From positions 1 through 11,850 of the IMG/VR virus record IMGVR_UViG_2623620491_000015: a stretch of 11,850 nucleotides of DNA, one strand, 5' to 3'. Positions 4,347 to 7,081 of the stretch are shown here, one piece after another. This DNA comes from a virus (taxonomy: Duplodnaviria > Heunggongvirae > Uroviricota > Caudoviricetes). Every line of letters begins with the position of its first letter. The stretch's first letter is position 1. The translations under genes were made by a program, and so were the position numbers. Below the pieces are notes generated by a model that saw nothing but the letters and a program-made list of their open reading frames with translations, did not search any database and had not been told where the DNA came from.

Positions 4347-5006
4347 ATGAAAATGAAATGGTATGAACTGGCTAGATCCAGAATGAAAGAGCTCGGCATA
4401 ACTCAAGAGAAGTTAGCTGAAGAGCTTGGTATGACGCAGGGTGGAATTGGTCACTGGTTGCGCGGATCTCGTCATCCATCTCTTGACGAGATTGGTGTGG
4501 TGTTTAAATACCTTGGTATTGATAACGTCTCATTCAACCACGACGGTACATTTTCACCTGCTGGCGAATACTCATCTGCCCCCGTTAAAAAACAATATGA
4601 GTACCCTGTTTTTTCTCATGTTCAGGCCGGGATGTTCTCGCCTGAGCTTAGAACCTTTACCAAAGGTGATGCGGAGAGATGGGTCAGCACAACCAAAAAA
4701 GCCAGTGATTGTGCGTTTTGGCTTGAAGTTGAAGGTAATTCCATGACCGCACCAACAGGATCCAAGCCAAGCTTTCCTGACGGAATGTTAATTCTCGTTG
4801 ACCCTGAGCAGGCTGTTGAGCCAGGAGATTTCTGCATAGCCAGACTTGGCGGTGACGAGTTTACCTTCAAGAAACTGATCAGGGATAGCGGTCAGGTGTT
4901 CCTACAACCACTAAACCCGCAATATCCAATGATCCCATGCAATGATAGCTGTTCCGTAGTAGGGAAAGTTATCGCCAGCCAGTGGCCTGAAGAGACATTT
5001 AGTTAA
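4347..5006 (+). CDS. cI: CI repressor (LexA-like S24 autocleavage domain); lambda-type C-terminal domain with a non-lambda N-terminal HTH domain
   Basis: The C-terminal ~125 aa ([22 protein letters not shown]...[11 protein letters not shown]) are near-identical to lambda CI as I recall it. N-terminal HTH is [25 protein letters not shown]. Alternative start ATG at 4353 with AAGGA SD. Confidence 0.9.
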
Positions 5007-5240: not shown

Positions 5241-5359
5241 AAACAGATACCAAACGAGATGGGTTTGGCGGTGATGTGAATTGCAGCTGCAACGACAGCA
5301 ACCAGAAGATCAGCACCTGGCGCATCACCACCAAAGCCATTTCACATGAGGAAAATATC

Positions 5360-5668
5360 ATGACGGTAATCGTGTACGGAAAATCAACATTTGCAGGAAA
5401 TGCCAAAACTCGCCGTCATGAGCGGCGCAGAAAGCTGGCTATCGAGCGTGATGCTATATGCAACATCATCGATTCGATCTTCGGCACAGACAGTGAGGAA
5501 CCTGTTCAGGAAGCCCCGAGAAAGCGTTTAAGCATTTCTGAAAAAGCAATATCACTCGGCATCATTAGCAAATCAAATACAGATGCGAATAGCGGAAGCG
5601 TTTGTTTGCCTGAAGTTGCACTGTATGCTGCTGGTTACAGAAGGCAAAAACTAATTACAGCGAGGTAA
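5360..5668 (+). CDS. N: Antitermination protein N (P22 gp24-type arginine-rich motif)
   Basis: ATG at 5360 with GAGGA SD. N-terminus MTVIVYGKSTFAGNAKTRRHERRRKLAIER matches the boxB-binding peptide of P22 N. The upstream part of the track ORF is discarded. Confidence 0.85.
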   Translation: MTVIVYGKSTFAGNAKTRRHERRRKLAIERDAICNIIDSIFGTDSEEPVQEAPRKRLSISEKAISLGIISKSNTDANSGSVCLPEVALYAAGYRRQKLITAR

Positions 5669-5670
5669 AA

Positions 5671-5949
5671 ATGAAGCCTAGCATAACAATCAAGCCAGCG
5701 AGAGATAATAGCAGGAACCGCCGCAGAGAGGCCAGGAAGGCAGAAAGAGCAGAGAAGGAAAACAAGAGCCGGGAGGAGAGAAAGGCAGAGATTTTGGAAA
5801 AAGGAGGATTGGCTGCCGTGAGGGGTGAAAAAGCAGCTGAATTAGCAGTAGCTCACGAAAAGACAGAGATTGACAATAATTCTGGTGGAGATGCAATGTT
5901 TAAAGTTGTCAATCACGCCCATCAACGAAACCCCAAAAAGAAATGGTAA
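5671..5949 (+). CDS. Hypothetical highly charged (Arg/Lys/Glu-rich) 92-aa protein
   Basis: ATG 3 nt after the N stop with GAGG SD. The DNA is strongly purine-rich on the coding strand. Ends just before a terminator. Confidence 0.55.
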   Translation: MKPSITIKPARDNSRNRRREARKAERAEKENKSREERKAEILEKGGLAAVRGEKAAELAVAHEKTEIDNNSGGDAMFKVVNHAHQRNPKKKW

Positions 5950-5952
5950 TCA

Positions 5953-5977
5953 ACCCGTCCAAGACGGGTTTTTTATT
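5953..5977 (+). terminator. Intrinsic terminator (tL1-like)
   Basis: cccgtc-caa-gacggg hairpin followed by TTTTTTATT. Confidence 0.7.
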
Positions 5978-6006: not shown

Positions 6007-6372
6007 ATGGAAGAACAAGCAAACAAGATTCTCGTAGAACTACTGCAAAAAGCCAGCAATGGAATAGACGCGGCTGTTTCATTTAGCCAGGCACAGATTC
6101 CTGATGTCATCCATCAGCTTTTGATGTGGCACGCCGTATCATCAGCTGGAATTCAGGCTATCTGTGTATTGGTGATTATAGCGTGTGTTTATCTGATGAT
6201 TTTTGCATGGAATAAAGGAGATGATGCGGATGTTGTTCTTTTATCGCTACTTGTAACATCAGGAATAGCGATTACTTCTATTGTTGTTTTCTTCAATTAT
6301 TTCGACTGGCTGAAAATCTGGCTTGCTCCAAAACTTTACCTTATCGAATATGCAGCATCATTGGTTAAGTAA
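6007..6372 (+). CDS. Hypothetical small membrane protein (two predicted TM helices)
   Basis: 121 aa. Hydrophobic segments IQAICVLVIIACVYLMIFAW and VVLLSLLVTSGIAITSIVVFF. Sits where lambdoid phages carry sieB/ral-type accessory genes. Weak SD. Confidence 0.55.
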   Translation: MEEQANKILVELLQKASNGIDAAVSFSQAQIPDVIHQLLMWHAVSSAGIQAICVLVIIACVYLMIFAWNKGDDADVVLLSLLVTSGIAITSIVVFFNYFDWLKIWLAPKLYLIEYAASLVK

Positions 6373-6376
6373 TTTC

Positions 6377-6402
6377 AGGCCGCATAGTCGGCCTTCATTT
6401 TT
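6377..6402 (+). terminator. Intrinsic terminator
   Basis: aggccg-catagt-cggcct hairpin followed by TCATTTTT. Confidence 0.6.
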
Positions 6403-6404
6403 GG

Positions 6405-6547
6405 CATAAACAACAGAATAAACACTGCACTGTGTATTCATTCCAACGAGTGAATACACGGAGCAATGTCGCTCGTAACTAAACAGGAGCCGACTTGTTC
6501 TGATTATTGGAAATCTTCTTTGCCCTCCAGTGTGAGGGCATTTTTTT
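6405..6547 (+). ncRNA. Candidate structured non-coding RNA or leader bounded by two terminators
   Basis: No ORF. 9-bp perfect inverted repeat gtgtattca / tgaatacac (6432-6440, 6451-6459), additional pairing acgag / ctcgt, and a terminal intrinsic terminator gccctc-cagtgt-gagggc + TTTTTTT (6522-6547). Confidence 0.35.
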
Positions 6548-6559
6548 GACGGAGGAAAT

Positions 6560-6871
6560 ATGAAATTACGTGTCTGGCATATCCCGCAAGTACCTATGAA
6601 GCCGTTCATTGTAGAAGTGGCAAGTGTTGAAGAGGGTGTTCGCCTGATGGACGCACTGGCTGATTATGACGCCTTTCAGTATGACAACAACATCAAGCCT
6701 GATTACTGCAATGCTAACGGCCTTGAGATGTGGGATGAGAGCCTTACCGATGAAGATTTATCAGAGATGGGGCTTACTGATCGCTGGGTGGATTGGTACA
6801 GCGAATGCCAATGTTACGACGACCCACGTAAATATCTCGAAAGCCTGAAAGAAGAAACATCAGCCGCCTAA
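6560..6871 (+). CDS. Hypothetical acidic 103-aa protein
   Basis: ATG with GGAGG SD. Strongly acidic composition (many D/E, Trp-rich). Sits in the ea10/ral-equivalent position. Confidence 0.65.
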   Translation: MKLRVWHIPQVPMKPFIVEVASVEEGVRLMDALADYDAFQYDNNIKPDYCNANGLEMWDESLTDEDLSEMGLTDRWVDWYSECQCYDDPRKYLESLKEETSAA

Positions 6872-6946
6872 GCGCGGCTTTACCGCATACCAATAACGCT
6901 TCACTCGAGGCGTTTTCGTTATGCAATCAAATATAAGGAGTTACCC

Positions 6947-7081
6947 ATGATGCACTTTCAGCTCGCGGGTAGCGGCGTCATGTCCGCTTTCTACCCGCAC
7001 GAATCTGAATTATCACGCCGAGTTAAACAATTAATCAGAGCAGCAAAGAAACAACTGGAGGCGTTATGCGCAATGAAATAG
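6947..7081 (+). CDS. cIII: CIII-like FtsH-inhibitor peptide (44 aa)
   Basis: Not in the track (<60 aa). AAGGAG SD 7 nt upstream. MMHFQLAGSGVMSAFYPHESELSRRVKQLIRAAKKQLEAL resembles the lambda CIII core (AIAGWPVAGCPSESLLERITRKLRDGWKRL). Confidence 0.7.
   Translation: MMHFQLAGSGVMSAFYPHESELSRRVKQLIRAAKKQLEALCAMK

Follow-up and report, generated by a model that had tools for sequence, protein, structure and literature searches.

A putative prophage copy of the lambda small RNA PreS and the conserved hairpin that precedes it

Gene order and structure of the locus

The stretch of DNA analysed here, called the window, is 11,850 nucleotides long and originates from the IMG/VR virus record IMGVR_UViG_2623620491_000015. 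Judged by the order of the genes with PHROG matches, its + strand is the early leftward (pL) operon of a lambdoid prophage, the order being cI-like, N-like, Nun-like, membrane protein, PreS, gp17-like and cIII. The cI-like repressor gene was located by its PHROG match at 4347-5006 and the N-like antiterminator gene at 5276-5668 (phrog_271). A gene for a Nun-like protein of 92 aa follows (5671-5949, phrog_5632); these two N-family ORFs stand in tandem and are succeeded by a terminator at 5952-5970. The next gene encodes a membrane protein of unknown function (6007-6372, 121 aa, phrog_3054). Beyond the interval studied here lies, in the position of ea10, a gene for a gp17-like acidic protein of 103 aa (6560-6871, phrog_1510, E 5.7e-58). 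Its product is homologous to P22 gp17, of the superinfection-exclusion family, and it is context outside the element itself. P22 gene 17 holds the same position, 3′ of the PreS-like RNA of P22, and a gp17-like gene as at 6560-6871 was found in only 5 of 131 related loci. The cIII gene (6947-7081, also a PHROG match) is immediately preceded by a conserved block at 6885-6946 with a terminator-like hairpin at 6895-6914. This block directly follows PreS in many phages, and the gp17-like gene looks inserted between them. The Rfam family Lambda_thermo, the cIII thermoregulator, gave a match in ES18 and none in the window.

In the first-pass annotation, positions 6405-6547 were described as a structured non-coding stretch flanked by two intrinsic terminators, and both the terminator scan and the fold bear this out. 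The scan returned 7 terminator-like sites over 1.8 kb, where 1.8 would be expected, and two of them, at 6377-6402 and 6521-6547, have the form by which intrinsic terminators are recognised, a G+C-rich hairpin followed by a T-run on the transcribed strand. The first is the terminator of the upstream 121-aa gene, with the stem AGGCCG/CGGCCT (6377-6394) and the tail TCATTTTT. It is common to N7, HK633 and Sf6 gene 34 and missing from most other contexts, and is part of the upstream mosaic module, not of the PreS block. The second is the interval's own terminator, as had been proposed, with its stem at 6521-6540 followed by T7.

Three inverted repeats were found between 6373 and 6560: a G+C-rich 6-bp stem, a long A+U-rich repeat centred on 6445 and a 7-bp stem. 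The perfect 9-bp inverted repeat with 10 nt between its arms that had been noticed from the letters was recovered (GTGTATTCA at 6432-6440 against TGAATACAC at 6451-6459), and the additional pairing potential was also confirmed, as in RNA the repeat grows to 14 contiguous pairs plus 3 outer pairs. The fold of 6400-6548 reached −49.4 kcal/mol compared to −30.6 ± 3.8 kcal/mol for shuffled sequences (z −5.0; 0 of 200 shuffles as good), and the z-scores of the + strand region ranged from −5.0 to −5.6 across the folds run. The absence of an ORF holds for the + strand and fails for the minus strand, where an 83-aa ORF spans 6358-6609. This ORF matched no PHROG family and starts in the downstream gene of such restricted occurrence (5 of 131 loci), and was treated as spurious.

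According to sequence listings and an alignment, the block that the phages have in common begins on the left at the GAATAA of 6414-6419 (+ strand). The TAA in it is the stop codon of the upstream gene, whichever gene that is, in many other contexts; the CDS ends of mEp043 c-1, P22 and ES18 fall on GAATAA or its variant GAGTGA.

Correspondence with lambda PreS

A BLAST search showed the interval to be approximately 98.7% identical to positions 33926-34076 of lambda, the ral-ea10 intergenic region, and among phage genomes it was detected in 331 records at 95-99% identity, lambda included. The lambda region has recently been reported to encode the small RNA LPR1, renamed PreS, which sits 'between ea10 and ral' (Silverman, Nashef, Bruner, Noy and Melamed, bioRxiv 10.1101/2024.10.31.621285; hereafter Silverman et al.). 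A literature search for a journal version found the preprint and a review (PMC12197685) only. On sequence grounds the interval is thus a prophage copy of PreS, an RNA that is already known. The small RNA that had been suggested as one possible product corresponds to the 3′ two-thirds of the interval (6461-6547), which match this published Hfq-dependent RNA of lambda.

The extent of PreS in the window, 87 nt at 6461-6547 on the + strand, was derived from the lambda alignment and from primers P810, P1103, P1104, P968 and P969 (Table S5 of the preprint). Mapping of the oligonucleotide table onto the window puts the cloned start used by Silverman et al. at 6461 (GAGCAATGTCGCTCGTAACT...), whereas the 3′ end at 6547 is given by the T-run after GAGGGC, the U-tract of tL2a. 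In the alignment to lambda (NC_001416) the sequences are identical from 6461 to the end of the terminator stem (~6539-6540). In total, 85 of the 87 positions are the same, and the two differing bases both lie in the tail after the stem, which reads GGGCATTTTTTT in the window and GGGCGATTTTTT in lambda. With this identity the element falls within the definition of LPR1 used in the preprint, at least 92% identity to lambda LPR1 and no more than 3 gaps. Because the two sequences agree at every position from +1 through the terminator stem, properties reported for lambda PreS may be transferred to the copy in the window. One of these is size: a transcript of about 100-150 nt had been predicted for the interval, whereas northern blots of lambda-infected cells and induced lysogens display an RNA of ~88 nt and a processed form of ~68 nt (bioRxiv 10.1101/2024.10.31.621285).

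The window and lambda share the pL locus between ral-side and ea10-position genes, the seed and tL2a. They differ in the flanks, with the phrog_3054 membrane protein in place of ral and the P22 gp17-like gene in place of ea10, and in the extra strong terminator directly 5′ of the element in the window. PreS is accordingly found here unchanged between a different pair of neighbour genes. At the gathering threshold, Rfam gave 0 matches in the whole window. With E≤10 on 6300-6650, sub-threshold terminator-like matches only were obtained (RyhB, STnc280), the best being RyhB on the terminator with 20.9 bits against a threshold of 55. PreS is missing from Rfam 15.

Seed region and host targets

Two stem-loops precede the terminator in PreS. 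Stem-loop 1 (GAGC-AAUGUC-GCUC, 6461-6474, + strand) has 4 invariant pairs in the RNAalifold consensus, with variation in the loop only. Stem-loop 2 (AACAGG-AGCCGA-CUUGUU, 6482-6499, + strand) displays compensatory changes, and its 3′ arm runs into the seed; between the lambda type and the Salmonella-phage type, two of its pairs are exchanged by compensatory GC to AU and AU to GC or GU replacements. The seed itself is the 18 nt TGTTCTGATTATTGGAAA at 6496-6513 (+ strand), located with primers P970/P971, P838/839 and P888/889. The published lpr1-delta-seed mutant lacks exactly this 18-nt stretch, which is intact in the window. The triplets mutated in M1 (CTG, 6500-6502) and M2 (GAA, 6510-6512) are both unchanged.

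An antisense alignment revealed complementarity to the 3′ end of dnaA and the dnaN leader in two blocks of 11 and 12 pairs, at 6496-6506 and 6511-6522. The target sequence of the E. coli dnaA-dnaN junction was rebuilt from the primers of the preprint, and the dnaN target sequence was confirmed in 5425 of 5426 complete E. coli genomes. The duplex of this junction with the PreS RNA of the window was calculated at −43.8 kcal/mol (z −4.9), and 0 of 300 shuffles were as good.

In lambda, both forms of PreS bind Hfq, end at tL2a and belong to the lytic cycle only, these observations being made for lambda only; the RNA is absent in lysogens and is seen only after induction or infection (bioRxiv 10.1101/2024.10.31.621285). 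It is strongly enriched with Hfq, with Hfq RIL-seq among the evidence, and it activates the translation of dnaN and represses alaS (Silverman et al.). According to the same authors, the M1 mutation abolishes the regulation of dnaN and M2 that of alaS, a 3-nt mutation in the seed abolishes the rise of DnaN and a compensatory mutation in the target restores it, and opening of the dnaN ribosome-binding site is seen by structure probing. Compensatory mutations are reported for alaS as well. When the seed or all of PreS was deleted, the spontaneous yield of phage fell 2- to 4-fold, an effect that depended on Hfq, and less phage DNA was present after UV induction; plaque phenotypes are also part of the published evidence (bioRxiv 10.1101/2024.10.31.621285). 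Few phage sRNAs have a demonstrated mechanism, and PreS, which hijacks the host replication clamp, is among them.

Applied to the window, the mechanism would proceed as follows. PreS would accumulate after induction or infection and be bound by Hfq through its terminator and U-tail (tL2a). The single-stranded seed UGUUCUGAUUAUUGGAAA would pair with the end of dnaA and the dnaN leader and thereby open the dnaN ribosome-binding site. More beta-clamp would then be made and phage DNA replication supported, and alaS would also be repressed.

The 3′ module of the RNA is the intrinsic terminator tL2a (6521-6547, + strand), with the stem TGCCCTC/GAGGGCA of 7 bp, 5 of them G-C pairs, the loop CAGTGT and U7. 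The Sf6 and O276 records label the homologous terminator tL2A, with the wording 'terminator, homology to lambda tL2A' in Sf6. As a member of the tL2 cluster of the pL operon, lambda tL2a is the homologue of 6521-6547 and does not differ from it in kind, except that it is classically described as a terminator only. The terminator role of tL2a in lambda is established textbook knowledge, and is compatible with an sRNA role. The suggestion that the interval could be a regulated leader for the downstream acidic protein is partly borne out in the classical sense, as its 3′ terminator is the N-suppressible tL2a of the pL operon, upstream of the ea10-position gene.

One might go further and regard the interval as punctuation only, with tL2a and the upstream terminator making the gp17-like gene, cIII and the recombination genes dependent on N and the RNA fragment left without a function of its own in this phage. 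Two terminator-like sites in the scan, the tL2A annotations in Sf6 and O276 and the location downstream of an N-like gene are all in line with this. In lambda, however, termination yields an RNA that is abundant, bound to Hfq and linked to a phage phenotype, and its targets have been validated by compensatory mutations. Mutations of the seed that do not disturb termination have already been reported there to reduce phage DNA replication or yield. The seed, although irrelevant to termination, is moreover invariant in hundreds of copies with different flanks and stays complementary to dnaN in a diverged branch. We thus regard punctuation alone as very improbable, and tL2a as the end of a functional PreS. 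Silverman et al. also equated the 3′ end of LPR1 with tL2a, citing the terminator as their reference 47 (bioRxiv 10.1101/2024.10.31.621285). The site would remain a terminator for polymerases without N modification. N-modified polymerase should read through it, which is at odds with the accumulation of an RNA with a terminator-defined 3′ end in lytic growth.

A conserved hairpin directly upstream of PreS

The A+U-rich inverted repeat forms a conserved hairpin directly 5′ of PreS (6426-6465, + strand), characterised by folds, by its four sequence types and by pair counts. In its core, 6430-6443 is joined to 6448-6461 by 14 contiguous pairs, two of them G.U, around the loop CAAC (6444-6447). Beyond an A.A mismatch (6429/6462), an outer clamp of 3 pairs connects 6426-6428 with 6463-6465. 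A repeat search described the same structure as 22-nt arms that are 82% complementary. The conspicuous 9-bp inverted repeat is real, and it lies 5′ of mature PreS instead of inside it. The 3′ base of the hairpin nevertheless holds positions +1 to +4 or +5 of PreS, with GCAC (6427-6430) paired to GAGC (6461-6464), and stem-loop 1 and the base of the hairpin compete for the GAGC at +1 to +4. The published deletion of full PreS leaves the hairpin in place, as primer P969 ends in ...GAGTGAATACACG.

Searches of IMG/VR anchored on the seed, the hairpin and a variant hairpin yielded 321 loci of the PreS family. The hairpin was present at the exact position in 320 of the 321, in four unrelated stem sequences (types A-D), so that conservation of the hairpin in related sequences, proposed earlier as a check, was found. 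Covariation across homologues was likewise detected: 8 of 16 pairs were changed on both sides, and the score of 0.55 compares with 0.149 for shuffles, 0 of 500 of which reached it, these pair counts coming from 12 aligned sequences that by chance are in register. The cells of the hairpin were paired in 93% of cases, compared to 26-45% with the partner slid. No variation is seen in the outer clamp (G-C, C-G, A.A, C-G) or in three apical pairs (A-U, U.G, U-A).

The sole exception among the 321 loci is O276, where an IS903 insertion ends inside the hairpin's left arm and has removed it, while PreS is retained (L148, 1400-1520). Given O276, the hairpin may be dispensable, and this locus offers a natural test case for its function. 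The distance from the upstream stop codon to the start of the hairpin is 0-5 nt in many contexts. At its left foot, the motif CACTG is tandemly duplicated in the lambda-type context (CACTGCACTG, 6423-6432), and occurs as a single copy (GAATAAGCACTG) where the upstream stop codon abuts the hairpin.

As a DNA element, the inverted repeat could be the operator of a dimeric protein or part of a promoter for PreS. With its perfect 9-bp arms spaced by 10 bp, the palindrome is built like an operator, and the operators of lambdoid phages likewise come in sequence types. The T.G extensions of the repeat, however, are conserved as U.G in all four types (alignment columns 26-35 and 17-44); such positions are asymmetric in a DNA palindrome and give C.A mismatches on the other strand, and the conserved U.G pairs are valid only in + strand RNA. 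The sigma-70 promoter scan found no + strand site near 6400-6460, upstream of 6461. Nor is a −10 or −35 element conserved across the hairpin types, the alignment placing the variable stem in the stretch where these would be expected. In lambda, PreS is silent in lysogens and follows pL. The type of the hairpin is independent of any particular neighbour gene, and types A and B occur with both branches of the sRNA. Together, these observations make a DNA-level element very improbable and point to a hairpin that acts as RNA.

Two further candidates were dismissed. A LexA box (CTGT-N8-ACAG) at 6430 gave no fit when checked by eye. The N-binding hairpin boxB has a 5-bp stem and a GNRA-like pentaloop, and the stems of 11-14 bp with variable loops seen here are unlike it.

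Proposed release of PreS from the pL transcript

We infer that PreS has no promoter of its own and is cut from the pL transcript, because of the lack of a promoter-like site, the variable stem in the place of a −10 and −35, and the silence in lysogens; the hairpin would then be a module for maturation and/or insulation. The 5′ end of PreS would lie in the base of the conserved hairpin at 6426-6465, itself right after the upstream stop codon, and the hairpin would set the release of PreS either through an RNase III cut in the lower stem or through an RNase E cut at its foot. Release would leave a protective hairpin at the 3′ end of the upstream mRNA, and the freed GAGC (+1 to +4) would re-pair with GCUC into stem-loop 1. 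The hairpin is hence plausible as a putative processing site, the assignment of its base to +1 of PreS being based on the cloning boundary of the authors. Measured by the yardstick of about two turns (~20 bp) of largely continuous double-stranded RNA for RNase III, with the ends of the products inside the helix, type A offers 17 pairs, or 22 nt at 82% complementarity, with the cloned +1 inside the base of the helix, and its length would suffice. Types B-D have 11-12 pairs and the 3-pair clamp, which is short for a canonical substrate of RNase III and makes them marginal. Neither 'RNase E' nor 'RNase III' nor 'transcription start' occurs in the text of the preprint (bioRxiv 10.1101/2024.10.31.621285). 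A literature search on pL processing sites, tL2a, and RNase III with tL1/tL2 found nothing relevant.

The hairpin may instead be unrelated to maturation and serve the upstream gene, as a 3′ stabiliser or a structure coupled to translation termination, while RNase E sets the 5′ end of PreS. Its start 0-5 nt after the upstream stop codon would suit such a role, O276 keeps PreS without an intact hairpin, and the ~68-nt form must come from a cut in single-stranded RNA near 6480. Yet the clamp pairs the invariant GCAC with +1 to +4 of PreS (GAGC) in every type, which ties the base of the helix to the 5′ end of the sRNA, and the hairpin travels with the sRNA and not with any one upstream gene. A role confined to the upstream gene is accordingly a minority reading, though one that deserves consideration. 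Taken together with the correspondence to lambda, the reading we hold to be very probable is that 6461-6547 encodes PreS, an Hfq-dependent trans-acting sRNA in the pL operon; it would be cut from the pL transcript, most likely with the hairpin as its maturation or insulation module.

A comparable arrangement is known from DicF of the Qin prophage. DicF is an Hfq-dependent sRNA processed by RNase III and RNase E from the transcript of the dicB operon, ends at an intrinsic terminator and targets ftsZ. It resembles PreS as an sRNA of an immunity-proximal early operon that is released by processing, ends at a terminator and targets an essential host gene. It differs in its operon position and in lacking any sequence relationship, as Rfam, which holds DicF, gave no match; the PreS target dnaN is, furthermore, activated.

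PreS-like RNAs of Salmonella phages

A diverged PreS-like RNA of ~103 nt was detected at the same pL position in the Salmonella phages epsilon34, ES18, g341c, BTP1, ST64T and P22. In ES18 (L350) it lies at 1201-1303 and in P22 (L348) at ~1201-1303, in the latter between ORF87 and gene 17 with 87% identity, and further copies were found in IMG/VR loci such as L193, L150 and L161. The type-B hairpin also precedes the ~103-nt RNA, which has the first 20 nt and the core GUUCUGRUUA in common with PreS. The Salmonella-phage RNAs are thus like PreS in position, in the 5′ 20 nt, in the kind of upstream hairpin, in the GUUCUGRUUA seed core and in ending at a terminator. They are unlike it in length (~103 nt), in an extra small stem-loop, in a different terminator and in an identity of 80-87% or lower, which falls below the 92% cut-off used in the PreS preprint (bioRxiv 10.1101/2024.10.31.621285). 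A literature search found no name for the PreS-like RNAs of P22, ES18, epsilon34, BTP1 and ST64T.

All variants are strongly complementary to the E. coli dnaA-3′/dnaN leader (z −2.9 to −5.2). For several of them, an alignment to antisense dnaA extends over 45-57 nt, and over ~55 nt for the P22-type and L196-type. The seed region (6496-6522) resembles the antisense of the last ~30-55 nt of dnaA, and many of the differences are A-to-G, with G.U pairing kept. These likenesses are hints that the family may have originated by inverted capture of host sequence, or else by strong convergent selection for pairing.

A more far-reaching proposal, which we put forward as speculative and rather doubtful, has two parts. 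The hairpin would be an exchangeable cassette dedicated to maturation, with the first four nucleotides of PreS in its helix base, and would direct the freeing of the sRNA from the antiterminated pL transcript. The PreS family, for its part, would go back to the 3′ end of dnaA, captured in inverted orientation, and would later have divided into E. coli-phage and Salmonella-phage versions, each tracking the dnaN leader of its host. Neither the maturation cassette nor the dnaA capture was found in the accessible portion of the preprint (bioRxiv 10.1101/2024.10.31.621285). What is added here to published PreS is modest: the covariation of the hairpin, whose probable role is to govern maturation, and the Salmonella-phage branch, with which the dnaN-targeting model could be tested by comparison.

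Mosaic flanks and distribution of the PreS block

Complete flanks were available for 131 loci. Their blocks, running from GAATAA through the terminator stem, are bordered by 15 families of upstream flank and 8 of downstream flank, which are joined in 37 combinations, that of the window occurring once only. The PreS block behaves as an independent module. The mosaic flanks explain an old annotation: in the Sf6 record (AF547987), 113 bp corresponding to approximately 6427-6539 of the window, that is, the hairpin and PreS, are listed as 'bsq4; boundary sequence'. The bsq4 of Sf6 and HK620 is the same block and its mosaic flanks were confirmed here, but the annotation implies a recombination joint without product instead of a functional sRNA with its hairpin.

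Read as a boundary sequence, the block would be a joint for homologous recombination between modules, conserved through recent exchange and not through function. The bsq4 annotation and the 37 combinations in 131 loci fit with this, as does the clustering of homology breakpoints at the edges of the block. Neutral drift of the seed and stems in phage lineages without recombination was looked at as a criterion, and the opposite was observed. The compensatory evolution in the hairpin and in stem-loop 2 indicates selection on RNA structure beyond shared ancestry, and the PreS RNA has an experimentally established function in lambda. As a full account of the block, recombination is therefore very unlikely, although a recombination joint and a selected sRNA can be compatible views of the same sequence.

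The hairpin and PreS were found in 2239 of 5426 complete E. coli genomes, in up to 6 places per genome. Among the matches listed, no feature was annotated over the hairpin and PreS in the RefSeq E. coli genomes. Some phage records carry CDSs or wrong product names over the block, namely ON470589 (a CDS, L349 806-1039), LT714109, PV340539 (labelled 'TolA'), and NC_019709 and NC_018279 (labelled 'CIII anti-termination'). The practical value of the present assignment is thus in annotation, as several phage records place hypothetical CDSs or 'TolA' and 'CIII' labels over PreS.

Matches to the seed were also obtained in assemblies of Shewanella, Pseudomonas, Chromatium, Bradyrhizobium, Paenibacillus, Kitasatospora, Arthrobacter and others. 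The loci concerned (L122-L126, L129, L130, L132-L137, L139, L140 and L143) are 99.9-100% identical to reference lambda, with 100% in all but L122, and some of the contigs are ~48.4-48.5 kb long or of low coverage. These matches are lambda DNA contamination and not real hosts, which bears on the published counts of 'bacterial species carrying PreS'.
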